Part shown: piece after piece, positions 13 through 58,129 of the stretch
Layout of the letters: the number at the start of each line of letters is the position of its first letter
Position numbering within the stretch: position 1 is the first letter of the stretch
Source: Candidatus Poribacteria bacterium
GTDB lineage: Bacteria; Poribacteria; WGA-4E; JAJDTR01
Reading direction: 5' to 3'
Assembly: GCA_965232235.1 (NCBI GenBank)
Contig: OZ246960.1
Location: 871,058 to 935,057 of the forward strand
Length of the DNA: 64,000 nt
Translations under genes and position numbers: made by a program
The notes under the pieces: model-generated
Seen by the model: only the letters and a program-made list of their open reading frames with translations
Databases searched by the model: none
What the model was told of the DNA's origin: nothing

Positions 13-336
13 ATGCGCGTCGACCCGCCGCCGACCCAGTGGGGCAACCCGCCCATCGGCGTCCTGACAAAACAGATTGGTGAGAACGAGAACGCGCAGG
101 AAATTGTTGAAATTCAGTTTTCGCGTTATCCCGAAAACTATGATGTCGTCGACCTGCACCTTCCCTGGCTGGACACCACGCCGATCGGTACCAAGGGGCT
201 GTCGAGCGGCACCATTCACAAAGCCATAATAACCACCCGCTGCCACGATCCCGATCACACCGGCTACCTCGCTTTTCGACTGAGCTGGGACACCGGCTTT
301 GCCGATTTCGTCTACAAATGCCCCGAAGAGAACTAA
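13..336 (+). CDS. hypothetical protein (107 aa), complete small ORF with a stop just upstream
   Basis: ORF track only; no recognisable motif. Confidence 0.25.
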   Translation: MRVDPPPTQWGNPPIGVLTKQIGENENAQEIVEIQFSRYPENYDVVDLHLPWLDTTPIGTKGLSSGTIHKAIITTRCHDPDHTGYLAFRLSWDTGFADFVYKCPEEN

Positions 337-369
337 CGAATCCTACTCCAGTCGAGTGAAAGGAAAAAC

Positions 370-837
370 ATGAAATACTTAACCCTGCTCCTCCTACTTC
401 CGCTCCTCGCCTGCGAAGTCGCCGATCACGACCATCCGCTGCATACGGAAGGCGCCTTCATTGTGGAAATCGATCCGCCGATATCCGTGATCTACGTTAC
501 CAAGGACGACAACCATATTACGTCGCAGCTTTACGAGGCTTTCAAAGGCATCCCGCCAAGGGCAATACACCTTGAAACCGGTGATTGGCGAACCGTCACC
601 GTGACCTTCTCTTCACCGCCTCAAAGGCTCTCGGTTTACCACAGTACCACAACGGACGGCGAATGCAACCTATTCCGCGGCCATCGTTTGGACGGTACCA
701 AGCTATACATAGATATCTACTGTCCGCAGGAGTTAACTCAGATGGAGACGGATGTAAGCCCCTATGGTAAGATCCACATCGTGTGGCAGAGCGGCAGTCA
801 AATTCTGCGCACCTGGTGCAATAGCATAAGAAGATAA
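370..837 (+). CDS. small lipoprotein, paralog A
   Basis: N-terminal signal peptide with lipobox LLAC (MKYLTLLLLLPLLAC); AAGGAAA ribosome-binding site about 6 nt upstream; the C-terminal half aligns with the next ORF. Confidence 0.5.
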   Translation: MKYLTLLLLLPLLACEVADHDHPLHTEGAFIVEIDPPISVIYVTKDDNHITSQLYEAFKGIPPRAIHLETGDWRTVTVTFSSPPQRLSVYHSTTTDGECNLFRGHRLDGTKLYIDIYCPQELTQMETDVSPYGKIHIVWQSGSQILRTWCNSIRR

Positions 838-845
838 GGAGCATC

Positions 846-1334
846 ATGAAACCATTCTTTATATTCCTTCTACTCCCGCTCCTCGCCTGCAGCCACGAAC
901 ACCCGCTGAAAGACCACCAGCACGAACACAATCTGACCGACCATGAGCACGACCTCGCCGACCATACCCACGATCTGGTCGCATATCCCGCTGCCCAACT
1001 CATCTGGGATGACCCGGGGGTCGTCGTAAGCGATAGACAACCCATCTCGATAGGCAGACTCACATACGAAGGATCTCAGTGGATCTTAGTCGTGTTTTCC
1101 CAACCGCCTATCGGCCTCACCGTCACCGACGTATCCGACCCCGACGGACGACCGACAATACCCATCTCGAGATGGCATGTGGAAAAGCGGTCACTGAAGA
1201 TCTTGGCATACTGTACGAACGAAACGGCCAATGCTGGCGTCGGCGGTATTGCGGTACGACTGCAATGGCATTCCGGCGGCGCACTGTTACGCTACGCGTG
1301 CGGAGATTGGCCGAGGGAGAGGGACCTTCATTGA
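846..1334 (+). CDS. His-rich small lipoprotein, paralog B (HEH / DHxH repeats)
   Basis: MKPFFIFLLLPLLAC lipobox, then SHEHPLKDHQHEHNLTDHEHDLADHTHDL; paralog of 370..837. Confidence 0.5.
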   Translation: MKPFFIFLLLPLLACSHEHPLKDHQHEHNLTDHEHDLADHTHDLVAYPAAQLIWDDPGVVVSDRQPISIGRLTYEGSQWILVVFSQPPIGLTVTDVSDPDGRPTIPISRWHVEKRSLKILAYCTNETANAGVGGIAVRLQWHSGGALLRYACGDWPRERDLH

Positions 1335-1589
1335 ACCCCTAACGCGGCCGATCATAATGACCCGGATGCACGTCGACCGCGCCAGTCGCGTCCCGGTCGC
1401 GTCAAAAATAGCGGCCACCACAAGTGCGCCTTGTACGGATTCAAACATTCAACGAAGGCTAACCTCCTGTCTTGATACATCGTTCACCTTCCCTACCTGC
1501 ATGTGGCGCCGGGCAAATCCCTCGGCCTCCTCCAACGTCGAAAACGAGTCCCAACTCATGCCCGAATCGCTCCACTACAGCGTATACGA

Positions 1590-1928
1590 ACCGTTCTCCG
1601 GACGGTAGAATAGCAGCGTCCGCTTGTTAATCACCGTTTCCCTAACGAGTTGGCGTTTCATAGACACATCCTAGAAATTGTTAAGACACAAGCACTGTTG
1701 TGAGAACTGCCAATGCCCCTCTTGCACAGAAAATGAACATTGGCGTTCATTTGTTAGATACGTAAGGGCGAAACGCTGGTGCGTCTCAGGAACACATCTG
1801 GGGACAATTCCAATGAAATCCGTGTGATAGCGCCAAGTGTGGGCAGCTTATGGACGTGGCACACAACTTGCTGACACTCTGCTAACACAGTCAATCCGAT
1901 TGCCATCGATTCTAAGGGAGCCAATCCA
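1590..1928 (+). repeat. duplicated gene-end + leader segment, copy A (also at 6130..6412 and 9880..10324)
   Basis: Long near-identical stretches shared with the other two copies, including ...ttctccggacggtag and ...gcactgttgNgagaactgccaaYgcccct... Confidence 0.7.
1857..1871 (+). promoter_or_regulatory. sigma-54 (RpoN) -24/-12 promoter match TGGCAC-acaac-TTGC, 58 bp upstream of the BNR1 ATG
   Basis: Exact GG-N10-GC spacing in TGGCACACAACTTGC; conserved in leader copies B and C. Confidence 0.55.
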
Positions 1929-3035
1929 ATGATATGGACTCGACGTTTAATGCGAACCGCTTTCATTTTCTTGGTAATGATGACTATATTGGCGAACGAA
2001 TCCGATGCGAATATCCGCGCCGAGTGGACTCAACTCACTGTCGCGCAGCCCATGGGGCGCGTGAACGCGCTTGAAACCGATGGACGCCGACTCTACGCCG
2101 GGACATGGAATGGTGTGTACATCTCCCTTGATGACGGTTACACCTGGGGTTCAAGCGAAGTCAAACACACGTGTACTGTAATTGCAACCCATCAAAATAC
2201 GGTGTATGCGGGAACATATGGCAACGGCGTAGTTCGCTCCGATGATCGTGGCGAGACATGGATGTCCAAAAACGACGGATTGCCCCTACCCGACGAACTC
2301 GACCAATACGGACGCGTTGAGCAAATCCTCGTCACCAGCTCCGGCACAGTCATCACTGTGACGAGCCTGGGTACGTATACATCGACCGACCGAGGTGAGA
2401 CATGGCACGGCGTAATAGACGACTGGATAGTGCACCAGGACGCGTGGGGAGCGCTCGACTGGCCAATAACCCGTAGTACGTTGTCGATGACTGAGTTCGA
2501 TGGTTATCTCTGGGGCGAAGCGGATGGCAGCATGTTCCGTTCCCCTGACAACGGCCACACGTGGGAATCTATTCCTCGTTTCGGACACCACCCGGCGCAC
2601 AACTGGGCGGTGTTCAATGATAAATTATATGTCGCCGGAGGAAAAGGCTTTGCACGATGGAACGAAGAAGGACTCCCTTTCCCTTGGGAGTATCGCATTA
2701 AAGGGTTTCCAAGCGATTCCGATGGGTATTTAGACTACGCGCCCAGTTTAACAAGCTTGGCTGTAAGCGGCGGCCGTCTATTTGCCGGACTTTACGATCA
2801 CGGCGTCTACATGTTTGATACACGCTCGGACACATGGATTCCCGCAGGTCTGCAGTGGCTTACAGTTAGTGCGCTCGTATCTCATCAATCCGAGCTGTAC
2901 GCAGCAACCTATGCGCTCGACGAAAGGCAGGCAGGCACCGTCCACACGCCCCAAGGGATCTACCGCGCTACAATTCTGGCCGTGCAGCCCTACGGCAAAG
3001 CCGCCACCACTTGGGGCGCCCTTAAAACAAAATGA
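1929..3035 (+). CDS. secreted BNR/Asp-box repeat beta-propeller protein, paralog 1 (368 aa)
   Basis: Signal peptide; Asp-box motifs SLDDGYTW, SDDRGETW, STDRGETW, SPDNGHTW; C-terminal tail PYGKAATTWGALKTK. Confidence 0.75.
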   Translation: MIWTRRLMRTAFIFLVMMTILANESDANIRAEWTQLTVAQPMGRVNALETDGRRLYAGTWNGVYISLDDGYTWGSSEVKHTCTVIATHQNTVYAGTYGNGVVRSDDRGETWMSKNDGLPLPDELDQYGRVEQILVTSSGTVITVTSLGTYTSTDRGETWHGVIDDWIVHQDAWGALDWPITRSTLSMTEFDGYLWGEADGSMFRSPDNGHTWESIPRFGHHPAHNWAVFNDKLYVAGGKGFARWNEEGLPFPWEYRIKGFPSDSDGYLDYAPSLTSLAVSGGRLFAGLYDHGVYMFDTRSDTWIPAGLQWLTVSALVSHQSELYAATYALDERQAGTVHTPQGIYRATILAVQPYGKAATTWGALKTK

Positions 3036-3817
3036 AATACCTAATCTTCATACTGAGTTTGTTAAGCCTTATTGTTGCCACTGTTCTGCTCGTGATCGCC
3101 ATCAGCTCTTGCACGCCGGACGTCCATGCCGAAATTCGGGCACTCTGGGTTCCACTCGTTGGCACGGAGTCCCTGAAGCACGTGAACGCACTTGAAACCG
3201 ACGAATTCCGTCTCTACGCCGGGACGTCTGCCGGACTCTACATCTCCCGAGATGACGGTGCCACCTGGAGTTTAACTGACCTTACACACGCTTGTCAGGC
3301 AATCGCAATCCGTCAAAATGCAGTGTATGCAGGAACACAAATGCGCGGGGTATTTCGCTCCGATAATCGCGGCAACACATGGAAGACCAAAAATAACGGA
3401 TTCCACGAAGTGCGTTGGGGCGGCGAAGATCGCGGATTTCCATTCATTCATCAGATCCTCTTCTCTAATACCGGCACAGTCATCACAGTGATGTACCACC
3501 AGGGCACGTATACATCGACCGACCGCGGCGAGACATGGGACAGCGTCATAGACGACTGGAGACTAGGCGACTGGCAAATAGGCGGTGATATCTGGTCGAT
3601 GACCGAGTTTGACGGATATCTCTGGAGCGCCATTTCGGTGCACACCACGCTCCGTTCCCCTGACAGCGGTCAGACGTGGGAACATATTGACCACTTCGAA
3701 CACACCCGGGTAATCGGCGTAGAGGTAGCCGTCCCGCTGTGTTTTGAACACATCCGGGGGTATTTCGTCCGGTACAGCGAAGCAGTGATGAACTATAGCC
3801 AGCCAGCAAACGAGTGA
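3032..3817 (+). CDS. BNR/Asp-box paralog 2, C-terminally truncated or diverged (261 aa, lacks the conserved tail)
   Basis: ATGA start/stop overlap with paralog 1; Asp-boxes SRDDGATW, SDNRGNTW, STDRGETW, SPDSGQTW; similarity to paralog 1 is lost after about aa 225, suggesting a frameshift. Confidence 0.55.
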   Translation: MKYLIFILSLLSLIVATVLLVIAISSCTPDVHAEIRALWVPLVGTESLKHVNALETDEFRLYAGTSAGLYISRDDGATWSLTDLTHACQAIAIRQNAVYAGTQMRGVFRSDNRGNTWKTKNNGFHEVRWGGEDRGFPFIHQILFSNTGTVITVMYHQGTYTSTDRGETWDSVIDDWRLGDWQIGGDIWSMTEFDGYLWSAISVHTTLRSPDSGQTWEHIDHFEHTRVIGVEVAVPLCFEHIRGYFVRYSEAVMNYSQPANE

Positions 3818-3851
3818 TACATATTTCACTTTCATGGTGCCACCCTCTTAT

Positions 3852-3890
3852 GTTTTTGTTCGTAGGTTGGGTTGAACACCGTGAAACCCA
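3852..3890 (+). repeat. REP-like element gtaggttgggttgaac..gtgaaacccaac
   Basis: GTAG followed by inverted repeat ttgggtt/aacccaa; the same family sits at 19680, 22770 and 27838. Confidence 0.6.
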
Positions 3891-3891
3891 A

Positions 3892-4836
3892 CTATCTAGC
3901 TTCCTGAACGCGGCGTTTTAAGCTGCCCCATGTAGTCGCCAGCTTGTTCTCGGGCTCCACTGCGAGCGAACCGCCGGGGAAGAGGTGATATCCGTTGCCG
4001 GACGAATCTCGATACATGGCGGCTCCGGGACCTTCATCAAAGTGCCACAACGCTATAGTCTGTACATCCAACCGGAGTCGACGTCTCGGACGAATTTCCG
4101 CCTCTCCGTAACGGAATCCCTTGGAAACCCGAACTTCGTCGATGTAGCCCTTCATGGATCCAAATCTGTATCCCCATCCCCAACCATTTCGTTTGGTGCC
4201 GCCAATTAGCAGCGGCGCATCGGTGCGGTTCATCGCGCTGCTAAAGGTGAAACCTCCCCAGTCGCCGTCATAATACCATATAACTTTCATACGATTTCCT
4301 TTCACAGAAATCTGATAGGCAATATGCACCCAACGCTTCAACGGGAAATCGTGGGGCGGAATCTCAGGTCCAAAAATCCCCGTACTCATGCCACTCTGTA
4401 CTCCATATTCGATATATGTAGTACCTTCTGGATCCCCCCGTCTAATACCAGAGCCTAAGTATCTTCCCGTAACAGAAACGAAATAGCTGCTGGGCTTGGC
4501 AAAGATATTCCACCGTCCCTCGTGAGAATTCGCAGCGAAATTCCAATCTTTCGGTTTATCGGTCAAATAAATCCACGCTTCAACCGTGATGCCCTTGCCT
4601 TCCACGTCGTCGAAGACACCGGGGTAATCGGCGTAGACATACCCGTCCGGGCGCAGTGTCAACACATCGCGGGGAACCTTCTCGGGTAAAGCGACTACTT
4701 TTGGCACGACAAATAACAATGCAATCAAGGTCAGGGCGCAAAATGAATATACTGTCCTGAATCTCATGATTCCCGCCGATTGAGTGTTTGCTAGTGTAAT
4801 CCCCTGCATTTCGATTCCTCCCATTTTATGTTTCAT
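3892..4836 (-). CDS. secreted LamG/concanavalin-A-like lectin-fold protein
   Basis: Hydrophobic signal from the internal Met (MRFRTVYSFCALTLIALLFV), so the likely start is 4767; WVHIAYQ..YIDEVRVS is laminin-G-like; C-terminus KLATTWGSLKRR shares the TWGxLK tail. Confidence 0.5.
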   Translation of the reverse strand: MKHKMGGIEMQGITLANTQSAGIMRFRTVYSFCALTLIALLFVVPKVVALPEKVPRDVLTLRPDGYVYADYPGVFDDVEGKGITVEAWIYLTDKPKDWNFAANSHEGRWNIFAKPSSYFVSVTGRYLGSGIRRGDPEGTTYIEYGVQSGMSTGIFGPEIPPHDFPLKRWVHIAYQISVKGNRMKVIWYYDGDWGGFTFSSAMNRTDAPLLIGGTKRNGWGWGYRFGSMKGYIDEVRVSKGFRYGEAEIRPRRRLRLDVQTIALWHFDEGPGAAMYRDSSGNGYHLFPGGSLAVEPENKLATTWGSLKRRVQEAR

Positions 4837-4903
4837 GTAGGTGTGCCGAGTGATCTTCCTTCATAAGTATTTTCCGCTAGAAGCCGATTTCCCTAACTAA
4901 TTC

Positions 4904-4918
4904 GCAAAAATCTTGCCA
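4904..4918 (-). promoter_or_regulatory. sigma-54 -24/-12 promoter match (minus strand TGGCAA-gattt-TTGC) upstream of the LamG gene
   Basis: Reverse complement of 4904..4918 is TGGCAAGATTTTTGC with GG-N10-GC spacing, about 70 bp upstream of ATG 4836. Confidence 0.45.
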
Positions 4919-4977
4919 ATCCCTAACCGTACAGGCGCACAAGCCAAAAAAAATCCGGGACGTGCAATGACTTGAAT

Positions 4978-5625
4978 TTATGAGCCAGCCGGGACAGATG
5001 CAAATCTGTGGCATGAGAGTAGGGCTAAATTGCGATACAACCCATAGCCATCAAGATAGAGATGATGTTCAAGAGGTACGGGACGCTCAAGTTCCTGAAC
5101 CACATCAATCTCGATCTCGCGGACGCTGCGCATCCAATCCCCGAACTGGTTGAGATTGGGTATGGTCGCGCTTAAACACGCAAATTTTATATGCTGTGGG
5201 GCGAAAATTATGCTCTCTTCCCATACCGTCCCTCGTTCAACATCGTTGATGTAATGAATCTCGTCGAATATTGCGTATTCTACATCCGCCAAGCGTTCTA
5301 TATCGTCGAAAATCGTGTTTCGGAAGATTTCCGTTGTCATCAACAGAATTTGGGCATAAGGATTGAGGACAACATCTCCCGTTAAAATACCGACCCGATC
5401 GCCATATCGCTCAAAGAAATCCCGATATTTTTGGTTGCTCAACGCTTTGATTGGCGCCGTGTAAATCACACGCCGATCGCCCTGAATGCATTTATCAACC
5501 GCATACTCCGCTACCACCGTTTTTCCCGCCCCGCTTGGAGCGGCGACAATCACAGAACGCTCATGATCTATTGCCCGGATAGCCTCTTCTTGGAACCGAT
5601 CTAGCTGTAAACCCCTGTAGAACAT
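4978..5625 (-). pseudogene. N-terminal fragment of a DEAD/DEAH-box (Ski2/Lhr-like) helicase
   Basis: Walker A APSGAGKT and DEIH box, but only about 200 aa; the reading frame ends at a 21-bp direct repeat (5022..5042) that recurs at 6052..6072. Confidence 0.55.
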
Positions 5626-5721
5626 TCAAATCTCCCAAACCCAAGTAACAGCCGCATGATTTTAACTGTTTCCACCCGTTTTGTCAAATGTGAATATCCG
5701 GGTGTAGGGGTCGCATCGCTT

Positions 5722-5800
5722 GGACCCATTGGGATCAACTTAAGGGATTTTGTCTAGTATCAGTGGTGTTCTCCGACGCAAAACCCTTAACTTAGTCCCA
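5722..5800. repeat. long imperfect palindrome (cccattgggatcaacttaaggg ... cccttaacttagtcccatagg)
   Basis: Inverted repeat seen directly; a half-copy recurs at 6030..6052. Confidence 0.45.
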
Positions 5801-5849
5801 TAGGATGGGGAGGAAATCTCTATCATCCCCCACACGGTAGGTGCGATCA

Positions 5850-5883
5850 AGCGAATGGATAATGAGTGCGATAGAGATCCCTT
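5850..5883 (-). repeat. copy of the R1 short repeat family (ctatcgcNctcattatccattcgcttgatc)
   Basis: Reverse complement matches the family consensus. Confidence 0.6.
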
Positions 5884-6129
5884 TCCAACCGCACCGGCAC
5901 CTACGGAAACCAGCGCCATGAGTCATCTCTTGTGGCGCACCCATCAGTGAACGAACTGGTATTCCCTCGCTCACGTCTACATGGAGATTAACAGTTCAAG
6001 ACATTGAAGCCGCGTGACTTGCACCCTAAAACGCTTAACTTGATCCCTATGGGGCTAAATTGCGATACAACCTATCCTGACGCTGAGCAACGTCAGACTA
6101 TCCGACGCATTCTTAATCGAATTGTGGTC

Positions 6130-6412
6130 CAAGATCGAACAGAAATGGTGCCCTACCAGCTTTGTTGAACGCGGGCACTGTTGGGAGAACTGCCAACGCC
6201 CCTCTTGTACAGAAATTGGACAACGATGTTCATATTTTAGGTACGAAAGCACGAAACGCCATTGCGTCTTAATGACACATCGGAGCACAATACCGATGAA
6301 ATTCGTGGGTTAGTGCCCGAATCGGGGCAACTTATGGGCGTGGCACACCACTTGCTCACGCTCTACTTGCGCAGTCAATCCGATAGCCATCAGTTCTAAG
6401 GGAGGCAATCCA
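6130..6412 (+). repeat. duplicated leader segment, copy B
   Basis: Shares the last ~280 bp of copy A, including the sigma-54 site and ribosome-binding-site region. Confidence 0.7.
6341..6355 (+). promoter_or_regulatory. sigma-54 promoter match TGGCAC-accac-TTGC, 58 bp upstream of ATG 6413
   Basis: Same position as in copy A. Confidence 0.55.
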
Positions 6413-7509
6413 ATGATATGGGCTCAAATTTTCACGCAAACCGCTTTCATTTTCTTAGTAATGATGACTATCCTAGCGAACGAATCGGATGCGAATATCC
6501 GCACACTTTGGCTTTCACTCACTGGCACGGAGGATATGGGAGAGATAAACACACTTGAATCCGATGGAAGCCGACTCTACGCCGGGACACGGGACGGACT
6601 CTACATCTCGGACGATAACGGTTACACCTGGCGTTTAACCGAGTTTAAACTGCCTGTTAAGGTAATGGCAACCAGCCCGCAATCAATATACGTAGGATCG
6701 AATGTTTATGACGGCCTCATTCAATCCGATGATCGTGGAAAGACATGGGAGCCCCTAAACAACGGGCTTGGATATATCGATGAAACCAACCGTTTAGACG
6801 ACGGTCCCGTTGGGTACGGAGTGTTTAAATACTTTGTGCACACCCCTTACGGCACCATAATCAGTGTAATGGCCTGCTGCACTGATGACTCGGCCGACGG
6901 CAGCGACACCTGGCGTGAGGCGCCATCCGACTGGCGAGTCGACGATACCGACTGGATATTAGGCTACGCTGTAAAGTTGTTGTACGGCATGGATCACTAT
7001 CTGGTGGCCGGCTGGGTTAGCGGTATACTACGCTCCCGTGAGGGACAACCCGGCGGCCGCCTCATCTCTTCCTTCGGTGGGAACGTCGACCAGATCGCTT
7101 GGCCGACCGCCTGGGCCGTGCTCAATAATAGAGTGTATGTAACCTGAGCACCATACTTGTCAAACGCCCCGTTTTTCGCGCTATACGACCCGGAGCGCAC
7201 TTGGCAGTATCTCAACGTAGGGCTTCCGGAGAGCGACGGTGTATGGCTCCGATACAATATAAACACCTTCGCTGCTAACCGCGGCCGCCTCTTCGCCGGA
7301 CTTAACCGCCCCGCGGCGTATACATGTTTGATGAGCGCTCCAAAACGTGGATTCCGGCAGGCCTAGACGGGTTGACCGTTAGTTCGCTCAAATCCCATCA
7401 AACCGATCTGTACGCAGCAACCAATGAAGGAATCTACCGCGCTTCAATCCCGACCGTGCAGCCCTACGGCAAAGCCGCCATCATCTGGGGCACCATCAAA
7501 CAAAAATGA
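6413..7509 (+). pseudogene. BNR/Asp-box paralog 3, disrupted by at least two frameshifts
   Basis: Homology to the intact paralogs continues across three frames (6413..7147, 7157..7366, 7324..7509); ends with the tail PYGKAAIIWGTIKQK. Confidence 0.6.
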
Positions 7510-8576
7510 AATACACAACCCTCATCGTCACTCTATTAGCCCTGCTCCTCGTCATCTCCCTCGCCCGCGCCGAGTGGGAACTCCTTCTTGCCACGCATAA
7601 CATGAGCGGCGTGACGGCACTTGAAACCGACGGCAGCCGCCTCTTCGCCGGGGGATCGTTGGAAGGACTGTATACCTCGGACGATAATGGTGACACCTGG
7701 TGTACAACCGCCCTGACGCACGGATACGTTCAGGCAATTGCTATCAGCGGCGATGCGGTATATGCATTCGTGAATGAGCACGGCATGTTTCGCTCCGACG
7801 ATTACGGGAAGACGTGGAACCCGATAAACGACGGGCTCCGCACAATTCATGACCATACCCTCGACATCCGGATCCCGTACATTAACCAAATACTCGTTAC
7901 CCGTTCCGATATGGTCATCGCTGCGGGCGGCTTTGATGGGACGTACATATCCCGCGACCGAGGAGAGACATGGCACTTCGCGGCCGATTGGTCGTTTCCC
8001 TGCCCCAAAGGGCCCGAGGTGCCCGACTTTACATTCAGCGATTCCATCGATTCGATGATCGAATACGACGGTTATTTGTGGGCAGCCGCGTGGTTCCACG
8101 TATACCGTTCCCCCGACGACGGCTCCACATGGGAATGCGTGCCAGTATTGCCAAGGCTCGGCGAAGCCTACGACTGGGCAGTGCTCAACAATCAATTATA
8201 CGTCGCCGGAGGACACGGATTTGTACGATGGAACGAAGGCGAACTCGCTTGGGACGATCTCAACAACGGGCTGCCGGATTCCCCTGATTTGAGAAGCCTT
8301 GCCGTTAACCGCGGCCGCATCTTTGCCGCAGTTAGGGCGTCATCTATGATCAGACCAGGGGCTTATAGGACTGTCGCACACGGCGTGTACGAGTTCGATG
8401 AGCAATCCGAAACCTGGTTTCCCGCAGGCCTAGAGGGAGTGGCGGTATACTTGGTCGCATCCGATCAATCCTACCTCTATGCCTCGACGTACAAGGGCAT
8501 TTACCGCGCTTCAATCCCCGTCGTGCAACCCTACGGCAAAGCCGCCGCCACGTGGGGCGCCATCAAACGACCATGA
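7506..8576 (+). CDS. secreted BNR/Asp-box beta-propeller protein, paralog 4 (356 aa)
   Basis: Signal peptide; SDDNGDTW, SDDYGKTW, SRDRGETW, SPDDGSTW; tail PYGKAAATWGAIKRP; ATGA overlap with the upstream gene. Confidence 0.75.
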   Translation: MKYTTLIVTLLALLLVISLARAEWELLLATHNMSGVTALETDGSRLFAGGSLEGLYTSDDNGDTWCTTALTHGYVQAIAISGDAVYAFVNEHGMFRSDDYGKTWNPINDGLRTIHDHTLDIRIPYINQILVTRSDMVIAAGGFDGTYISRDRGETWHFAADWSFPCPKGPEVPDFTFSDSIDSMIEYDGYLWAAAWFHVYRSPDDGSTWECVPVLPRLGEAYDWAVLNNQLYVAGGHGFVRWNEGELAWDDLNNGLPDSPDLRSLAVNRGRIFAAVRASSMIRPGAYRTVAHGVYEFDEQSETWFPAGLEGVAVYLVASDQSYLYASTYKGIYRASIPVVQPYGKAAATWGAIKRP

Positions 8577-8584
8577 AAATGTAT

Positions 8585-8618
8585 CTGGTGCTTCCTCTCG
8601 ATTGAAAGGAAGCACCAG
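8585..8618. terminator. bidirectional hairpin terminator between convergent genes
   Basis: Perfect 12-bp stem ctggtgcttcct / aggaagcaccag with a 10-nt loop; a U-run follows on the minus-strand side. Confidence 0.45.
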
Positions 8619-8629
8619 ATGAGACTCCC

Positions 8630-9145
8630 TTAAGCAACGGTTATCTCGTGAGTGTTTCCAGACGAACCCGGATTAGGTGCCGGCTTGGGCGGGCTGCCTT
8701 GCGTTTGCGCATTTTGGAAACCCACGCTAGTGTAGGCCTCGATCTTCACCTTGTCGCCCGGTTCGAGAGGATCATCCAACTCGAACGTATAGACACGATC
8801 ATTCTCCCAAGAGGAATTGCCTTTGAGGTCTTCCATGTCGTCTTCGTCAAACGTGTCGCCCGAGTCGACCCTTATCACGCCCTCGTTACGATTTTGTCGG
8901 GGTGGCGCCGTCTGATCGGAAAACACATCGGGAGGATAGCCTCCGCCTCTATCGATGTTAACCTCATGCTTATACTCGATATCGAAAGTCTGGCGGCCGT
9001 CGTCCTTGTTTTCGATATCAAATCGGTGTTTGCTCCGGGTTGTGATCTCATCCCTGGCGGCGTTCACCGATACATTAATGTCAAAGCACTCCAAAGACGC
9101 CGTGGTTTGGTGGCTGTTGTATTGCTTGAGTGGACCGCGTACCAT
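8630..9145 (-). CDS. hypothetical protein (171 aa)
   Basis: ORF track; no motif recognised. Confidence 0.3.
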   Translation of the reverse strand: MVRGPLKQYNSHQTTASLECFDINVSVNAARDEITTRSKHRFDIENKDDGRQTFDIEYKHEVNIDRGGGYPPDVFSDQTAPPRQNRNEGVIRVDSGDTFDEDDMEDLKGNSSWENDRVYTFELDDPLEPGDKVKIEAYTSVGFQNAQTQGSPPKPAPNPGSSGNTHEITVA

Positions 9146-9204
9146 AGTTAAATCTCCTTAATTTCACCCTCCTACGAGTGTCACCGCTTATACTGAGGTA
9201 TAAA

Positions 9205-9732
9205 ATGAAAAGACTAAGCCTGCTCATATTGCTCATCGCCGCCTGCGGCGCCGAAGACACGATGCGCGAGCCCGACATTGAGCCAGTCCTTCCGGTCGTC
9301 GACATCGGGGCCTACGACATCAACTCCCAGTATTTCGTATATCAACTCGAGTCTGATCACACGGTAGACCGACCCATATACGTCTGGGTAGTTAAGACCT
9401 ATAGAGGGCATTATTCGAACGACAGGTTTCGCCGCTTTGAAATCTGCGACGTCGGCGGGCCTGCAAGGATAATAGCGGGTCTGCAAGAGTGCATCGGAAT
9501 TGCGGAAAGAACGATTGGCACCAGGAAAGAAACGGATCATCAATTCTCTAAGTCCAATGTCCCCTTTCAAGAGGGCGAGCAGGGTATTGTCACCTCTGTC
9601 GTCATAGAAATTTCGCAGTTGCCGCCGCAGGCCGAATGGTATATAGAGAGAGGCCACCCATTCACCGTAGGCGTCTCCACCCTGATGTTCACGACGCATC
9701 AAAACATTATTCGTCGACAATGGCAAACGTGA
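9205..9732 (+). CDS. hypothetical lipoprotein
   Basis: MKRLSLLILLIAAC lipobox from the internal Met at 9205. Confidence 0.4.
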   Translation: MKRLSLLILLIAACGAEDTMREPDIEPVLPVVDIGAYDINSQYFVYQLESDHTVDRPIYVWVVKTYRGHYSNDRFRRFEICDVGGPARIIAGLQECIGIAERTIGTRKETDHQFSKSNVPFQEGEQGIVTSVVIEISQLPPQAEWYIERGHPFTVGVSTLMFTTHQNIIRRQWQT

Positions 9733-9809
9733 AGGCATAAAAAAGGCCGCTGTCGCCTGGGGAGCTATAAAACAACCACGACTAAAGTAGACATAGAACA
9801 AGGTGTATC

Positions 9810-9908
9810 ATGAAAATCTATCTGCTCGTACTGCTCGTGCTCCTCGGCTGCCGGGAGACGGAGAATCGACCTGTTGTCGAACAGCCCGAAGCGTTCTCCG
9901 GACGGTAG
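9810..9908 (+). pseudogene. remnant lipoprotein signal peptide (32 aa, MKIYLLVLLVLLGC...FSGR*) inside leader copy C
   Basis: Translation by eye; ends with the same ..FSGR stop context as 1231..1608. Confidence 0.4.
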
Positions 9909-10324
9909 AATCGCAGCGTCCGCTTGTTAATCACCGTTTCCCTCACGAGTTGGCGTTTCATAGACACATCCTTGAAATTGTTAAGACAGAGGCACTGTTG
10001 CGAGAACTGCCAATGCCCCTATTGCACAAAAAATGAACATTGGCGTTCACTTGTTAGATACGAATGCACGAACCGCTAAGACACAGCAGGAGGTGAGTTC
10101 GATGCAATTCGTGGGGTAGTGCTAATACAGGGTAACTTATGGACTAGGACAGTCCTGGGACGTGATAGATAGTGGCGCACAACTTGCATACATTCCAATA
10201 ACGCAATCAATTCGAGAACCATCAACTCTACAAGAGACGGCAAATTTTGTGCACTCAACTCGGATCGACTTTCACGAAGTGCTGCCGCTATGAGAACTAA
10301 CACTGCCGAAAAGGTGAAAACCCT
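9880..10324 (+). repeat. duplicated leader segment, copy C
   Basis: First ~200 bp nearly identical to copy A. Confidence 0.7.
10173..10187 (+). promoter_or_regulatory. sigma-54-like promoter match TGGCGC-acaac-TTGC
   Basis: GG-N10-GC spacing retained; 138 bp upstream of ATG 10325. Confidence 0.4.
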
Positions 10325-10972
10325 ATGAACGACTCCAACTTGTTCGGACGAATCGTTAAGGCGGCGGTGGTCGTCGCCCTATACGCATTCTTTTTCATCG
10401 GTGCTGTCGTCCTGATAATCGGCTGCGGCGAGGAACGTGAGGATATCCTGCAGCCGGCCTTGCCAACGATTAATCTGAGAGCACAAGACATCGATCCGAG
10501 CTTTCGTCAGTTTGCATATGCCATCACCGCCAGCGAGCCGCTCCCCTATTCTATAACACTGCGCGTAGACACCACTGCCGACGTATTCGCAAACGGGCAC
10601 TTCCAAATTGTGAGAAATAAGGAAATCCTCACTTTCAAGCGTGGTTCACAGACGGTCTACGGATTCTACAACAGATATTTCCTGCAAGCGTTCCTGTATC
10701 AAAACAGCTTTTTTTTCGATAAGGAGTTCGGGACGCTGGAATGCGTTCGCGGCGGCGGCGCCGGTTCCGTCCCAGACCCCCCGCGTGGGGCTCACCCCGT
10801 GATTCAGATAAAGGTAATGATCTCACATCCACTGCCCAACGACGACCATTGCGTCAGCCTTGCCGGCGGTGCCTACACTATTGAGAGTTCGAAACTCACT
10901 TTAAGGGCGCCTGACGATCTCATCGAGACGCTGTTTCCTGACCCGGACACCCGCCCATGGGAAGTCCGATAA
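10325..10972 (+). CDS. hypothetical membrane-anchored/lipoprotein (215 aa)
   Basis: N-terminal TM helix ending in IIGCG. Confidence 0.4.
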   Translation: MNDSNLFGRIVKAAVVVALYAFFFIGAVVLIIGCGEEREDILQPALPTINLRAQDIDPSFRQFAYAITASEPLPYSITLRVDTTADVFANGHFQIVRNKEILTFKRGSQTVYGFYNRYFLQAFLYQNSFFFDKEFGTLECVRGGGAGSVPDPPRGAHPVIQIKVMISHPLPNDDHCVSLAGGAYTIESSKLTLRAPDDLIETLFPDPDTRPWEVR

Positions 10973-11230: not shown

Positions 11231-11419
11231 TCCACATGGCCGAAGGCGAGCTCCGATCCCAGGAAGTCGTTTTCTGGAGTATATGTCCGCCCCGGACCAC
11301 TAACGACTCGCCCCCTAGGTTCGAGGCGCAAATAAAGCCGATGCACGAACGATCCCGACACTTGCCGTCTAACCCTTGAAGTTAGATACTGTACAGCAAT
11401 TACTATCCATCAGAACACC

Positions 11420-12223
11420 GTGTATGCCGGAACATGGTACGACGGCGTATTTCGCTCCGACAGTCATGGCAACACATGGCAACCCATAAACAACGGAATC
11501 CGCTTAATCGATCGGGGTAGCGAAGAACTCGGGCCTCCAATCATTGAGCAAATACTCGTGACGAGTTCCGGAACCGTCATCGCTGTGGGGTACCACAGCG
11601 GTACGCATACATCGACCGACCGAGGCAAGACATGGCACGACGTAACACTAGAGTGGAAAGTGCGCCGAGACGCATGGGGACTGCCCGACCGGATAATAGG
11701 CGATGGTATCTGGTCGATGGCGGAGTTCGACGGCTATCTTTGGGCAGCCTATTCGAGATACCAAGTATTCCATTCCCGTGACAACGGCGTAACGTGGGAA
11801 CATACCAGCGGATTCGGGCATGGCCGGGTTGCCGACTGGGCGGTGCTTAATGATCGATTATACGTGGCCGGGGACGAAGGCTTTGGGCGATGGAACGAAG
11901 CCGAACTCGCGTGGGACGATCTCAGCCGAGGGCTTCCGCCAGCTGGCAGGTGGCCCGACCGTCCAGACCTCTCAATACAAACCCTGGTTGTTCATCGCGG
12001 ACGTATCTTCGCCGGGCTTCGGAACAACGGCGTGTGGACGTTTGATGAGCGCTCCGAAACGTGGATTCCCGCTGGTCTCGACGGGTTGACCGTTACCTCG
12101 CTCGTATCCCATCGATCCGATCTGTACGCAGCAACCAAAGAGGGCATCTACCGCGCTTCAATCCCGACCGTGCAACCCTCCGGTAAAGCCCTCACGACAT
12201 GGGGCACCGTTAAAACAAAATGA
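11420..12223 (+). CDS. BNR/Asp-box paralog 5, 5'-truncated
   Basis: Homology to paralog 1 starts about 11390 (..TAITIHQNTVYAGTWYDG..), equivalent to residue ~90 of the full-length proteins; no signal peptide; Asp-boxes and the tail PSGKALTTWGTVKTK are present. Confidence 0.55.
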   Translation: MYAGTWYDGVFRSDSHGNTWQPINNGIRLIDRGSEELGPPIIEQILVTSSGTVIAVGYHSGTHTSTDRGKTWHDVTLEWKVRRDAWGLPDRIIGDGIWSMAEFDGYLWAAYSRYQVFHSRDNGVTWEHTSGFGHGRVADWAVLNDRLYVAGDEGFGRWNEAELAWDDLSRGLPPAGRWPDRPDLSIQTLVVHRGRIFAGLRNNGVWTFDERSETWIPAGLDGLTVTSLVSHRSDLYAATKEGIYRASIPTVQPSGKALTTWGTVKTK

Positions 12224-12235: not shown

Positions 12236-13309
12236 ATGAATAACAAACTCAGCTTAACGTTTATCCTAACCCCACTCCTGCTCGCGATCTGGCTCTCCAA
12301 TTTCGTCCAAGATGCCCGCGCGGAGTGGGAACATATCCCCGGCACCGAGGTCATCGGGAGCGTCGAACTGCTTGAAAGCGACGGTGTCCGTCTTTACGCC
12401 ATAGGTGACGCCGGCTTTTACCTCTCCTTCGATGACGGTTACACCTGGCGTCGCCGCAACATTGGTCGCGGCATCGAGGACTTTTATATCACCGCCATTG
12501 GAAGCGGGGATGGTGCCGTCTATGTCGGTACGGCAGACCACGGCGTGATCCGCTCCGACGACGGCGGCAACACCTGGGAGCACATTAACGAAGGGCTCCA
12601 CATCTTCGACAGCCCGAAATGGGGGGCCCACTACGGAAAGGTTGAACAAATGCTTGTCACAGGTTCCGGCATGGTCATCAACGTAGGATACCACCGTGGC
12701 ACGCACATATCTAACAACCGAGGCGAGAAATGGCGCGACGTAATGATGGAATGGAAGGCATCCCAAGGACCGGGACAGCACGATTGGGCTTTCGGCGACG
12801 GCATCTGGTCGATGACCGAGTTCGACGGCTATCTCTGGGCCGTCTATTCGGACGCCCCGGTATTCCGGTCCCCCGACCAGGGCGCCACTTGGGAGCTTCT
12901 TCCAATCCGAAGCTACGGCAGCATCCGCGACTTTGGGCGCGTACACGACTGGGCGGAGCTTGGGGATAAGCTGTACATCGCCGGAATCGGCGGCTTCGGG
13001 CGATGGAACGAAGCCGAACTTGCTTGGGACGATTTCAGCCAAGGACTCCCGCCGGAACGGATAGCAAGCCTAGCGGTTAATCGCGGCCGTATCTTCGCCG
13101 GAACAAGGAACAACGGCGTGTGGGTGTTTGATGGCCGATCCGAAAGGTGGATTCCCACAGGTCTGGACGGGTTGACCGTTACTTCGCTCGAACCCCATCA
13201 ATCCGATCTGTACGCGGCAACCAAAGAGGGCATCTACCGTGCTTCAATCTCGACCGTGCAACCCTACGGCAAAGCTGCCGCCACATGGGGCGCCATAAAA
13301 CAACGATGA
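12236..13309 (+). CDS. secreted BNR/Asp-box beta-propeller protein, paralog 6 (357 aa)
   Basis: Signal peptide; SFDDGYTW, SDDGGNTW, SPDQGATW; tail KAAATWGAIKQR. Confidence 0.75.
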   Translation: MNNKLSLTFILTPLLLAIWLSNFVQDARAEWEHIPGTEVIGSVELLESDGVRLYAIGDAGFYLSFDDGYTWRRRNIGRGIEDFYITAIGSGDGAVYVGTADHGVIRSDDGGNTWEHINEGLHIFDSPKWGAHYGKVEQMLVTGSGMVINVGYHRGTHISNNRGEKWRDVMMEWKASQGPGQHDWAFGDGIWSMTEFDGYLWAVYSDAPVFRSPDQGATWELLPIRSYGSIRDFGRVHDWAELGDKLYIAGIGGFGRWNEAELAWDDFSQGLPPERIASLAVNRGRIFAGTRNNGVWVFDGRSERWIPTGLDGLTVTSLEPHQSDLYAATKEGIYRASISTVQPYGKAAATWGAIKQR

Positions 13310-14427
13310 ATTACCTAATCTTCGTACTTGCACTATTAAGCTTTCTTGTTGCCTCCGCTCTCCTCGTGCTCTCCCTCGACAGTTGCTCGCCGAACGCAGA
13401 TGCCGCTTTCCAGGCCGACTGGATTCACCTCTCCGGCACTGAGGCGCTGGAGGCGGAGCTTCTCGAAACCGATGGCAACCGCCTCTACGCCGCCACTTGG
13501 GAAGGAGTGTACATCTCCTTGGATAATGGTTACACCTGGCGTTATGCCGAGATTGCCCACGGTCTTGAACAATTTTATATTATCGCAATTGGAATAGGGC
13601 GCAATGCCGTGTATGCAGGGACACAACACCACGGCGTATATCGCTCCGACAGCCACGGCAACACCTGGAAGCCCAAAAGAAACGGTATACACATATTCGA
13701 TTTAGATGAACCCGATCTAGAACCCCATTACGCAGCCGTTAAGCAAATACTCGTCACCCGTTCCGGCACAGTCATTGCCGTGGGGTACCATGCGGGCACC
13801 TATATATCCACCAACCGAGGCGAAGCATGGCATGGCACCGACGAGTGGCGGTACACCAGAGAACATCTGGGCTTGGACGACGTGCCAATAGGCTATGATA
13901 TCTGGTCGATGACCGAGTTCGACGGCTATTGGTGGGCAGTTACTTCGAGCGGTTCGTACAAATTGTGCCGTTCCTCTGACGACGGCGAAACGTGGGAAGG
14001 TCTTCCCTACTGGGTAGCCGGCGGAAGTATCGCCGAGTACCCTCATGTAGTCGATTGGATAGTGCTCAATGATCGGTTATACGTCGCCGGAGCTGGAGGC
14101 CTCGGGCGATGGAACGAAGCCGAACTTGCTTGGGACGATTTCAGCCAAGGACTCCCGCCGGAACGGATAGCAAGCCTAGCGGTTAATCGCGGCCGTATCT
14201 TCGCCGGAACAAGGAACAACGGCGTGTGGGTGTTTGATGAGCTATCCGAAACGTGGATTCCCGCTGGTCTCGACGGGTTGAACATTTACGACCTCATATC
14301 CCATCAATCCGACCTGTACGCCGCCACGGACGAGGGCATCTACCGCGCTTCAATCCCGACCGTGCAACCCTACGGCAAAGCCGCCGCAACTTGGGGCGCC
14401 CTGAAACACGAAGCTCTCGCCAAATAG
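13306..14427 (+). CDS. secreted BNR/Asp-box beta-propeller protein, paralog 7 (373 aa)
   Basis: True start is MNYLIFVLALLSF at 13306 (ATGA overlap); the upstream part of ORF 13147.. is an antisense artefact; 133 bp at 14103..14236 are identical to 13001..13133. Confidence 0.75.
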   Translation: MNYLIFVLALLSFLVASALLVLSLDSCSPNADAAFQADWIHLSGTEALEAELLETDGNRLYAATWEGVYISLDNGYTWRYAEIAHGLEQFYIIAIGIGRNAVYAGTQHHGVYRSDSHGNTWKPKRNGIHIFDLDEPDLEPHYAAVKQILVTRSGTVIAVGYHAGTYISTNRGEAWHGTDEWRYTREHLGLDDVPIGYDIWSMTEFDGYWWAVTSSGSYKLCRSSDDGETWEGLPYWVAGGSIAEYPHVVDWIVLNDRLYVAGAGGLGRWNEAELAWDDFSQGLPPERIASLAVNRGRIFAGTRNNGVWVFDELSETWIPAGLDGLNIYDLISHQSDLYAATDEGIYRASIPTVQPYGKAAATWGALKHEALAK

Positions 14428-17910: not shown

Positions 17911-17950
17911 GTGTGATCAACCGAATGGATAATGAGGACGATAGAGATCC
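17911..17950 (-). repeat. R1-family short repeat copy
   Basis: caaccgaatggataatgaggacgatagagatcc. Confidence 0.5.
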
Positions 17951-17998
17951 TCTGCGCACCAGCCTTTGAAAGCACCCAAGTTCCGTTCGCCGACTTCT

Positions 17999-22369: not shown

Positions 22370-22736
22370 GGTGGGCACCGCCCACCGTTTCTCGTAGAGA
22401 TTAATCGGGCAAATAGACTAAGCTCGACTTTGTACATTTGAGCGACACAACAAGCGGTGTTAATCAAACGTTGAAGAAACATTGAGAGTGCGCCATTGTC
22501 CCTGTCGGAATAATTCTTTCAGCAAGCAACACTTTCTGGTCGGAGTCCCTTTCCTCGATCCAGAGGATCGAAATGTTAATAGAATGCGGCATGTCCAGAT
22601 TTCCGCGCTCCAGCGGAGCGCCATGTGGTGTATTGATAGATAGTGTTACTTGAGAGGATTTTAACCATCTGGTCTTTTCGGTTGACCTGTGAAAAAATCT
22701 CAGCGGTTTCTAGTGCCATCACAGCGGGGCAAGATG

Positions 22737-22885
22737 GGATCTCTATCGCACTCACTATTCACTCACTTGACCGTAGGTTGGGTTGAACGGTACCTCGAAA
22801 AACTCACACATGGAGCACACATACCTTCGAATCTCCACATCCGCTTATAGGCACCAAAATCTTCGTGAAACCCAACACCTCAGCC
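22737..22885 (+). repeat. R1 repeat copy followed by a REP-like gtaggttgggttgaac..(90 nt)..gtgaaacccaac
   Basis: Seen directly. Confidence 0.5.
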
Positions 22886-29101: not shown

Positions 29102-29410
29102 CGTTTACCTCCTTGGAATAGAGAATGAATTTCTTTTCGAATCTTCAGATTATCCTTCTAAATCTGTAGGGTGCGCACGGCGCACCAGCCTTTTCTCATG
29201 CAAGATACCCCGTAGATTGAATAGTGCACGGTAAAGAATCCAGACAACGAGTGCTTGCGGTAGGAGAGAATTCCAATTCCTGATGTGTGTGGATACTCAT
29301 CGCTCGGGATTAGCAATCAGGATTCTCTATCGCGCTCTCTATGCGGTCGCTTGTACCTTCCTTATTCAATCGCTTGATTATTACCACCGCAATCCAATAG
29401 CACTCACGAT

Positions 29411-29623
29411 TCATCTGCGCCAGTATGTGCGAGGCTTCTTCCGAGTTTTGCTAGCCTCGCGCTTTTTCTTCTCCTCTAGTTTCGCGTGGTAGAGTTGATG
29501 ACACTCACGGCAGAGCGCGGTTAAATCTGTGAGCCGCTCTTTGCCTCGGCGTTGGTAATTCACGTGATGCACCTCGGTGGCGGGGGCACCGCAGACGCGA
29601 CACTTCCCGCCAGATTTTTTCAT
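29411..29623 (-). CDS. small HNH nuclease-motif protein (70 aa)
   Basis: CRVCG..EVHHVNY..N..CRECHQLYH; the ORF could extend upstream into repeat-derived sequence. Confidence 0.45.
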   Translation of the reverse strand: MKKSGGKCRVCGAPATEVHHVNYQRRGKERLTDLTALCRECHQLYHAKLEEKKKREASKTRKKPRTYWRR

Positions 29624-29821
29624 GATGGTATCGCGCTTTGATTTCCATTTTGACGATCCCAGATACGACCTGTAATTGCGTTGACGTGTTTGCTTGGACG
29701 GTTGATGTTGTCTTTTTCGCTGCGCCACTGTGAACCATCCTTTCGAGTAAATGTCAGCACTCCTGTAGGGTGCGCACCTGTCGAAGTTATGAAATATGAG
29801 TAGGATGGGCGATCCCCCTGG

Positions 29822-30245
29822 GACCTCTATCGCGCTCATTATCCATTCGCTTGATTCTCCCACAATCGGGGAACAATAAGCTCTATCGGGATTGGATACC
29901 GTACCCAATGTCTCACGTGGCACTCCGCTGGAGTGCAGGAACTGGGACTTTTCCTTTCTATTGACATGCCGCCCCTCCGGGGCGGGGAGCCGCGTTCTGG
30001 AGGGGATCTCTGTGGGAACGCTATCGCGCTCATTATCCATTCGCTTGATCCTCCCACAATCGGGGAACAATAAGCTCTATCGGGATTGGATACCGTACCC
30101 AATGTCTCATATGGCACTCCGCTGGAGTGCAGGAATTGGGACTTTTCCTTTCTATTGACATGCCGCCCCTCCGGGGCGGGGAGTCGCGTTCTGGAGGGGA
30201 TCTCTGTGGGAACGCTATCGCGCTCATTATCCATTCGCTTGATCC
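29822..30245 (+). repeat. 194-bp tandem direct repeat (2.15 copies), each unit holding R1 + hairpin + ttctattgacat + GC hairpin
   Basis: The consensus starts at 29827, 30021 and 30215. Confidence 0.8.
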
Positions 30246-30291
30246 CCGCTCCTATGAAGATGGTGGGCGGTGCCCACCCTACAGATCTCGT

Positions 30292-31364: not shown

Positions 31365-31760
31365 ATTCTATCGCACCTGAGATTACTCGCTTGATTCCAC
31401 CCCACAACTATCCGGCCGGTTGATGTACGGCTGATTCATGCTTACGGAGTATTGGGGCATACCCCACATAGCGCTCCTCTGGAGCGCGGGGTTTTGGTCA
31501 TCGCTATTCTATTGACATTGCGCTCCTCTGGAGCGCGGAAATGGGACTAATACCATTTCGCTTGAATAACAGTGCATATAGAGCCTGTTTGAATACTCGA
31601 TAGCCAAGCAATTTTGGTCATTTATAGGAAGTTTTTTCGCGTTTTTATATTTGTCTGTCGCGTATCTGTCGCCCCGCTGGGGCTTAGGTGCATGGGGCTT
31701 TGGCGTTTCTATATACCTTCCGCCCACTGGGGCTTTTAAAGGCTGGTGCGCAGTGCGCAC
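31365..31760. repeat. intergenic repeat mosaic: R1 copy, ttctattgacat module flanked by gcgctcctctggagcgc hairpins, gccccgctggggc hairpins, REP gtagggtgcgcactgcgcacc
   Basis: Seen directly. Confidence 0.6.
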
Positions 31761-31942
31761 CCTACAAATGTACTTTTTAAACAGGTTCTATAGTGTTTTC
31801 CTTATACTATTATGAAATGCCCCATACCAACTGTTGCGCTTCACACCAAACCCCGTAGTCGGGAATCAAACTAACGAATAGTGAGTGCGATAGAGATTCC
31901 CTTGCCCCGCTTTGGAAAGACTTGATTGACGCGATTAATACA

Positions 31943-58031: not shown

Positions 58032-58129
58032 TTTTGCCTCCGACGGCGGTTGGTCGATGGTGTTGTCCGTGACGATGCTGGGAATGCAGGGGTTCGTTGG
58101 GGGACATTATCGCACATGAGCTGCCGATT

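Follow-up and report, generated by a model that had tools for sequence, protein, structure and literature searches.

A repeated upstream block with -24/-12 boxes in Candidatus Poribacteria is a probable sigma-54 promoter region of operons for exported proteins

In a 64-kb stretch of a Candidatus Poribacteria genome (contig OZ246960.1 of assembly GCA_965232235.1, positions 871,058 to 935,057, hereafter the window), three homologous non-coding segments, copies A, B and C, lie upstream of genes for exported proteins. Copies A and B stand before BNR/Asp-box beta-propeller genes and copy C before a lipoprotein-like gene, and each contains a motif resembling the -24/-12 element of promoters read by sigma-54 (RpoN). 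Promoters of this type, with upstream activator sites, are known from glnAp2 with NtrC, nifH with NifA and pspA with PspF. Does the repeated block act as such a promoter, and which genes does it serve? Our analysis indicates that each copy is probably the sigma-54-dependent promoter region of an operon for exported proteins, with a candidate upstream activator site. A first-pass annotation had proposed sigma-54 control of the BNR genes through an enhancer-binding protein. The comparative footprint and the activators found in related genomes support this, but the near-identity of the three copies, the exact match in C, the copied gene-end unit and the enhancer block that came with the proposal proved wrong or weak.

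A scan of the 27-nt core of the element against species-representative genomes returned six loci, all in metagenome-assembled genomes of Candidatus Poribacteria. A profile built from the first copies was run with nhmmer on these loci and on six more, fetched through close homologs of the BNR gene behind copy A (gene 1). In total, 20 element copies were detected by nhmmer in the window and the 12 related poribacterial loci (among them L001-L006 and L088-L092), often two or three per 8-13 kb. The alignment holds 22 sequences, including two box-only promoters (L089 3679 and L005 7996), and covers at least ten Poribacteria assemblies; the conservation profile was computed on 16 non-redundant copies, with 289 windows of 16 nt ranked. 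The DNA pattern of the core had no match in the JGI metagenome collection. A metagenome protein scan with the BNR alignment gave only propellers of 22-42% identity, of no use for footprinting, and an exact-protein look-up of the gene 1 product returned no record.

Copy A spans 1682-1871 (nhmmer 1677-1911, E 5e-66), copy B 6165-6355 (nhmmer 6160-6397, E 8e-74) and copy C 9982-10187 (nhmmer 9977-10221, E 4e-58, and alignments), all on the plus strand. The cores are 77% (A-B), 78% (A-C) and 74% (B-C) identical. A much higher identity, 96%, is confined to an extension shared by A and C (1590-1683 against 9890-9983), which B does not have. Thus, the three near-identical segments initially described are indeed homologous, but their cores are not near-identical, and the homology of B, which had been placed from 6130 onwards, begins only at about 6160-6165. 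The stretch 4903-6368, which takes in copy B, shows 98-99% identity to L002 and L003. Against L006 and L091 the same level holds for 4903-5868, the identity dropping past about 5870 to 95.8% in L006 and 93.7% in L091. Copy C represents a 'long' variant, with a 27-nt insert (10145-10171) just 5' of its box and without an 11-nt stretch found in A and B. Across the loci, inserts of 27-48 nt directly 5' of the -24 element separate the long promoters from the short ones. The 11-nt indel, about one helical turn in length, falls in the columns of window 1775-1787 and distinguishes A and B from C and several other copies.

The exact sequence TGGCAC-N5-TTGC occurs twice in the 64 kb, as box A (1857-1871, plus strand, TGGCACACAACTTGC) and box B (6341-6355, plus strand, TGGCACACCACTTGC), both within the repeat; 0.16 matches were expected, and none of 100 shuffles reached two. 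An exact match had been claimed for all three copies. This is correct for A and B, but box C (10173-10187, plus strand, TGGCGCACAACTTGC) departs from the consensus at one position (TGGCGC) and retains GG and GC. Indeed, GG-N10-GC is present in all three copies and each box is followed by T or A. The predicted transcription starts lie at about 1883, 6367 and 10199, respectively. The TGGCGC arrangement of C recurs in L005, where its ortholog L005_4853 has the same -24 and -12 hexamers (TGGCGCATAACTTGC) before the same downstream gene.

Over the 22 aligned sequences the box consensus reads G[TC]GGC[AG]C-N5-CTTGC. The GG is invariant (22/22) and TTGC is kept in 21 of the 22, the exception being L005_995, which has lost everything downstream. 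The 5-nt spacer varies, with six forms (ACAAC, ACCAC, AAAAC, ATAAC, AGGTC and GCTAC). In the conservation profile, the box window (1856-1871) ranks second of 289, and only the windows at 1740-1760 rank above it. Strong conservation runs in copy A from about 1684 to 1871 and drops sharply afterwards: it ends right after the C of TTGC, and the predicted leader is the least conserved part. A conserved box with a conserved block upstream, and conservation stopping at -12, is what one would expect if a promoter is preceded by a protein-binding site.

The similarity might also be explained as a by-product of segmental duplication or gene conversion in a fast-rearranging array, the box being a functionless passenger. 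The region is rich in pseudogenes, truncations and rearranged paralogs, and the 96% identity of the A/C extension points to recent exchange. However, the non-coding block (74-83% identical) is more conserved than the coding sequence behind it (63%, A versus B). Moreover, the box survives in copies whose upstream half or flanks have been replaced (L089_5799, L005_4853, L089_x3679), and the same block stands before unrelated lipoprotein genes in L001, L088 and L092. We therefore regard a passenger box as decidedly improbable. The otherwise almost unalignable promoters L089 3679 and L005 7996 both read TAGTGGCACGCTACTTGC, 55-56 nt before genes for membrane-anchored proteins.

The relaxed pattern YGGCRC-N5-TTGC was found 25 times in 189.6 kb, against 1.8 matches expected from composition. 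In these loci, which are ascertainment-biased, 21 of the 25 matches lie upstream of genes and in sense orientation to them, mostly 42-80 nt before the starts of BNR, lipoprotein or membrane-anchored protein genes. In most copies the box ends 42-80 nt before the ATG, and longer distances are seen only with an intervening miniature inverted-repeat transposable element (MITE) or a leader that has decayed. The BNR genes of A and B have their ATG 58 nt after the last box base (57 nt between), so that the coordinates confirm the 58 bp first reported. The same relative position had been claimed for C; this copy has the insert and lacks the 11 nt, and its box lies 137 nt from the start codon of the next intact open reading frame (ORF).

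Which part of the conserved upstream DNA would bind the activator? The block GCACTGTTGTGAGAACTGCCAATGCCCCT (1692-1720, plus strand) had been put forward as an enhancer 60-150 bp upstream. It is invariant or nearly so in most copies and extends from about -191 to -163 relative to the predicted start. However, it lies 137-165 nt upstream of the box, and it is missing from the most divergent members (L089_5799, L005_4853 and L089_x3679), which keep the box and retain instead a palindrome block located 14 nt further downstream. This palindrome, TGAAC-N6-GTTCA (TGAACATTGGCGTTCA, 1734-1749), is centred at about -141. No other inverted repeat with arms of 5 nt or longer keeps its complementarity in 80% or more of the copies. 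In the conservation ranking, first place among the 289 goes to the 16-nt windows at 1740-1760, which overlap the right arm of the palindrome. Copy B has the variant TGGACAACGATGTTCA at 6217-6232, and in copy C the palindrome lies at 10034-10049; no palindrome block was found in the window outside the three copies. In L089, an otherwise unalignable promoter keeps TGAAC-N6-GTCCA at 3600-3615, with a wider block TGCACA-N4-TGAACA-N5-GTCCA-N-TTGTT. The palindrome, rather than the block first proposed, is thus the best candidate for the upstream activator sequence (UAS) recognized by an enhancer-binding protein.

A conserved stretch of about 190 nt could also be a structured cis-regulatory RNA leader, riboswitch-like or an attenuator, transcribed from further upstream. 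Its length and conservation resemble those of RNA leaders, and a hairpin can be drawn at 1734-1749, but no structural constraint was detected: RNAalifold on eight copies found compensatory changes in 0 of 33 pairs, and copy A folds no better than shuffled sequences (z -0.16 on the plus and -0.88 on the minus strand). Rfam searches of the whole window and of 1300-10600 at E <=5 returned only a chance ZMP-ZTP match (E 1.3), which lies in a BNR pseudogene. Conservation is lowest in the part closest to the start codon, and type-I copies abut a small divergent gene, leaving no room for a promoter further upstream. An RNA leader is extremely unlikely. Small ORFs inside the block were also searched on both strands, and none is conserved between copies.

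The preferred reading, a sigma-54 promoter with an upstream activator site, calls for a cognate machinery. On the 4.57-Mb poribacterial contig of locus L090, which carries a 76% ortholog of BNR gene 1 and a copy of the element, an activator gene lies 4 kb from the element. Its product (229-1773, minus strand) combines a PAS domain, Sigma54_activat (E 9e-55) and HTH_8, with the Walker A motif GETGVGKE and the loop AAFTGA. A database search with this protein returned about 85 related clusters of 57-96% identity, several per genome, on contigs matched by length to element-carrying ones; two of the clusters are named by NCBI 'sigma 54-interacting transcriptional regulator [Candidatus Poribacteria bacterium]'. 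These PAS-Sigma54_activat-HTH_8 activators form an expanded poribacterial family with several paralogs per genome. Bacterial enhancer-binding proteins of the kind that the first-pass annotation expected are thus encoded in related element-carrying poribacterial genomes, with none in the window.

In two further loci (L093 11861 and L094 11874), activator genes of this kind are themselves accompanied by a box. The sole -24/-12 match in each 21.5 kb (L093, TGGCATAGGGCTTGC; L094, TGGCACAGCATTTGC, exact) is intergenic, just downstream of the activator gene and before the next gene cluster. The two intergenic regions have common conserved blocks about 150-250 nt upstream of the box, and the gene clusters behind encode proteins mostly without Pfam match. 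This is the classic activator-target arrangement, and it shows that Poribacteria make use of the canonical motif. Data in the literature are consistent with such use. Sigma-54-specific Fis-family regulators are listed for poribacterial single-cell genomes (PMC3909097 supplements), and genes for sigma-54-specific regulators of Poribacteria are transcribed in situ (PMC5087111 supplement). More generally, sigma-54 and its activators co-occur, and they are near-universal in diderms bearing lipopolysaccharide (PMC3162934). The presence of rpoN in Poribacteria is predicted solely from the activators. Our literature search returned no paper linking Poribacteria to sigma-54 and nothing on their transcriptional control.

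The promoter might instead be read by a sigma-70-family factor, for instance of the extracytoplasmic function (ECF) group, TGGCAC-N5-TTGC then being a repressor or activator operator or a conserved spacer. Many genes for such factors are listed for poribacterial single-cell genomes (PMC3909097 supplements), other promoter elements could lie within the roughly 170 bp conserved upstream, and the dependence on sigma-54 is read from the sequence, rpoN itself not having been seen. However, a consensus scan finds no TTGACA/TATAAT-like pair on the plus strand inside any of the three copies. The conserved positions are those of the sigma-54 consensus, with a strict GG-N10-GC, a variable spacer and a stop at -12, and canonical boxes adjoin sigma-54 activator genes in the same phylum. 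A sigma-70-type promoter is accordingly an unlikely explanation.

Several points weigh against the sigma-54 reading. The distance between palindrome and box varies (73, 107, 118, 134 and about 155 nt or more) and shows no consistent helical phase; variable spacing is tolerated by looping activators, yet helical phasing provides no support. The near-continuous conservation over about 170 bp exceeds the need of a single activator site, which makes further functions likely, for example, in some copies, as promoter of the small divergent gene. All copies are of shared ancestry, and part of their conservation could result from recent duplication or gene conversion. The loci were selected because they carry the element or its genes, and the enrichment figures are biased accordingly. 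A six-frame search of the 64 kb for GAFTGA, Walker A, ESELFGH and the RpoN box found nothing, and rpoN is not listed for Poribacteria in the literature and supplements searched, which mention activators and PspA only. Finally, the activator of L090 was considered as the cognate regulator and set aside: its vicinity to the element is probably coincidental. In L093 and L094 the activator gene has its target promoter on the downstream side, whereas the downstream side of the L090 gene points away from the element and falls beyond the locus covered.

With these reservations, a sigma-54 promoter remains the probable function of the block, and we infer the following sequence of events from the comparative data. 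Sigma-54 RNA polymerase would occupy the box in a closed complex. From its site upstream, an AAA+ activator, probably a member of the PAS-Sigma54_activat-HTH_8 family, would loop to the promoter and, upon receipt of a signal by its sensor domain, drive promoter opening at the expense of ATP. This would induce the BNR beta-propeller arrays jointly with the lipoprotein operons nearby, the surface-protein families probably being switched on together by an activator.

These features resemble those of the glnAp2, nifH and pspA promoters: the TGGCAC-N5-TTGC(T) box, the strict GG-N10-GC, the predicted leader of 30-50 nt, the conserved DNA 100-190 bp upstream with a dyad, and the presence in the same genomes of AAA+ activators with a Fis-type helix-turn-helix. 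Unlike these promoters, the poribacterial region shows an unusually long (about 170 bp) and near-continuous conservation, occurs in many copies per genome and precedes two unrelated gene families. Its targets, signal-peptide BNR propellers, lipoproteins and possibly a LamG protein, fit the association of sigma-54 with cell-exterior genes, lipoproteins included, that was described by Francke et al. 2011 (PMC3162934). Poribacteria were outside the coverage of that survey, however, and it dealt mainly with biosynthesis and transport genes, not with hypervariable secreted paralog arrays. The mechanism is a textbook one; what is new is its recognition in Poribacteria and the use of one multi-copy block for two families, a gain that is organism-specific rather than conceptual. 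Poribacteria are abundant uncultivated sponge symbionts, and the repeat defines a candidate regulon of host-facing proteins and points to a sensor-activator that would decide when those proteins are made.

Behind copy A, the predicted 5' untranslated region (UTR; 1872-1928, plus strand) bears the Shine-Dalgarno sequence AAGGGAG (1914-1920) and is much less conserved than the block. It leads into BNR/Asp-box gene 1 (1929-3035, plus strand), whose product has a signal-peptide-like N-terminus and matches BNR, Sortilin-Vps10 and Kelch in Pfam. In the PDB, the AlphaFold model of this protein (pLDDT 84, pTM 0.81) is matched best by YCF48 (5oj3), a 7-bladed propeller, and by the sensor propeller of BT4663. 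Gene 1 overlaps by 4 nt, as in an operon, with BNR paralog 2 (3032-3817, plus strand), in which the BNR part extends to about 3700 and is followed by an antisense LamG-like fragment; 3700-3835 resembles the reverse of 4621-4700. Behind copy B, BNR paralog 3 (6413-7509, plus strand) is a pseudogene in this genome, with a stop at 7145-7147 and then a frame change, and its ortholog in L006 is intact (363 aa). It is followed by BNR paralog 4 (7506-8576, plus strand) and a terminator-like hairpin (8583-8620).

Copy C is followed by a decayed BNR-type leader (10188-10324, plus strand), homologous to the 5' UTR and signal-peptide codons of A and B but with the Shine-Dalgarno sequence and the ATG lost. 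Its 5' UTR is 60% identical to that of A, ...CAAATTTTGTGCACTCAAC aligning against ...CCAATGATATGGACTCGAC. The next intact ORF (10325-10972, plus strand) is lipoprotein-like, with the lipobox LIIGC and no Pfam or NCBIfam match, in agreement with the initial description of C as preceding an unrelated lipoprotein gene. Copy C thus reads as what was once the promoter of a BNR gene; the start of that gene has decayed, and the copy now stands before the lipoprotein-like gene.

In the related loci, the block precedes BNR genes in L004, L005, L088 and L090-L092, as it does in A and B, and lipoprotein genes at L001, L088_4108 and L092_2246, as in C. The long variant is found before genuine lipoprotein operons in L001, L088 and L092 and before a BNR gene in L090. 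Since the long variant precedes genes of both kinds, one regulatory block appears to serve two unrelated families of exported proteins.

A possible second -24/-12 box, of low confidence, reads TGGCAAGATTTTTGC at 4904-4918 on the minus strand, about 68 nt upstream of the first ATG (4836) of a LamG gene (3892-4836, minus strand). The corresponding sequence in L091, L006, L002 and L003 is TGGCAGGATTTTTGC, in which GG and TTGC are kept and indels begin directly after. It is a possible further sigma-54 promoter for an exported protein.

How did the block come to stand before such different genes? The first-pass annotation took the upstream end of the copies, ending in FSGR and a stop, for the last codons of an upstream gene, and concluded that gene-end and leader units had been copied together. 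Both statements have to be abandoned. In A, the stretch 1590-1661 runs antisense to a small divergent gene of 70 codons (1449-1661, minus strand) and covers its N-terminal codons, which correspond to the A/C extension; the gene has an in-frame TAG at 1575-1577. An intact ortholog exists in L092 (5547-5759, minus strand; 70 aa), and the gene was also noted for L005 and L088. Compared with Pfam, the gene product (MKRQIVKETVINKRTLLFYR...SWGSFLTLEEAEAFARRH...) matches only Cauli_VI (E 0.14), a weak likeness to the RNase H1 N-terminal domain. In the flank type that includes this gene, the block is a 267-nt divergent intergenic region. Upstream of copy C only a remnant of about 26 codons persists (9885-9961, minus strand), and the FSGR frame there is part of a 32-aa stump of a lipoprotein gene, fused to this remnant.

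These junctions bear on the idea that the block is the end of a mobile element, a MITE or insertion sequence with an outward-facing promoter. Multiple copies before non-homologous genes, in a genome rich in MITE-like repeats, would agree with it. However, the copies share no terminal inverted repeats and are not surrounded by target duplications, and no transposase lies nearby. The upstream boundary also differs: there are three or more types of flank, which recombine at short stretches that they share, for example GAAATTGT. The decayed BNR leader at C shows descent by gene decay and not by insertion. We consider a mobile element very unlikely; rather, the block would have spread with the gene arrays, by duplication and recombination and not by transposition. 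Homologous promoter regions upstream of non-homologous genes have been described as putative mobile promoters or promoter reuse (Matus-Garcia et al. 2012, PMC3488235; PMC3575422). The poribacterial block resembles such reuse in that it precedes non-homologous genes within and across related genomes. It differs from mobile promoters in that duplication, recombination and gene decay in linked arrays explain its spread, with no sign of mobility.

A further reading, which we hold to be doubtful, is that the block is a portable expression site, 'enhancer plus sigma-54 promoter', behind which surface-protein gene cassettes are exchanged. It is based on arrays that differ strongly between close relatives behind near-identical promoters, and on the presence of truncated, promoter-less copies. 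Between genomes, the sequence upstream of box B is 98-99% identical, while the BNR genes behind it either show 82-96% identity or have been replaced outright, and the arrays comprise 2 to 8 genes. The truncated, promoter-less BNR copies could be silent donors. If this were true, a symbiont of sponges would couple sigma-54 control in response to a signal with variation of its exposed proteins by recombination, in the manner of antigenic-variation loci of pathogens.

Decay and shuffling of the BNR arrays were observed at several sites in the window (3032-3835, 6413-7509 and about 11385-12223) and in L006, L091, L002 and L003, in the form of a pseudogene, a 3'-truncated copy with antisense LamG and a 5'-truncated copy.

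Several of the exported proteins have in common a C-terminal tail, K-[LA]-x-[TA]-[TS]-W-G-x-[ILV]-K plus 2-8 residues, as in ...VQPYGKAAATWGAIKQR and ...EPENKLATTWGSLKRRVQEAR, each ending at the stop. It is borne by the ORFs at 1929-3035, 7506-8576, 11420-12223, 12236-13309, 13306-14427, 3892-4836 (minus strand), 45499-46728 and 47006-48118, which encode BNR propellers, the LamG protein and two others. The tail, for which NCBIfam models gave no match, could act as a C-terminal tag for sorting or anchoring. Small lipoprotein operons with histidine-rich N-terminal stretches (for instance CSHEHPLKDHQHEHNLTDHEHDLADHTHD) are present at 370-837 and 846-1334 in the window and at 2831-5030 in L092. 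These lipoproteins, which had no match in Pfam or NCBIfam, could bind metal.

Upstream of copy B, a fragment of a DEAD/ResIII helicase gene (4978-5625, minus strand, 215 aa) comprises the N-terminal part only; four other genomes keep it, likewise as a fragment, and are 98-99% identical there. The 21-mer GGGCTAAATTGCGATACAACC is found twice, at 5023-5043 and 6053-6073, flanking the region upstream of copy B.

Two other repeat families were noted. A dispersed repeat of about 40 nt (GGGAT.TCTATCGCGCTCATTATCCATTCGCTTGATC) is present in 20 or more copies on both strands, often as pairs or triplets about 194 nt apart. It was found at 5841-5881, 17915-17961, 22724-22771, 29308-30246, 35006-35054, 38624-39239, 43210-43247, 48350-48398, 50015-50068 and 54899-63110. 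Related poribacterial loci, L090 among them, likewise have intergenic regions filled with this repeat, which looks like a family of the repetitive extragenic palindromic (REP) or MITE type. Finally, in L002 and L003, a MITE-like element of about 165 nt separates the -12 box of the B-type promoter from the ribosome-binding site; it lies in the predicted 5' UTR and extends the leader to about 200 nt. It has the terminal inverted repeats GAGCCTGTTTGAAAA / TTTTCAATCAGGCTC and the internal sequence GGCTGGTGCGCAGTGCGCACCCTACAAAT, and related arms are found in the window at 29159-29193, 31738-31772 and 57173-57204.

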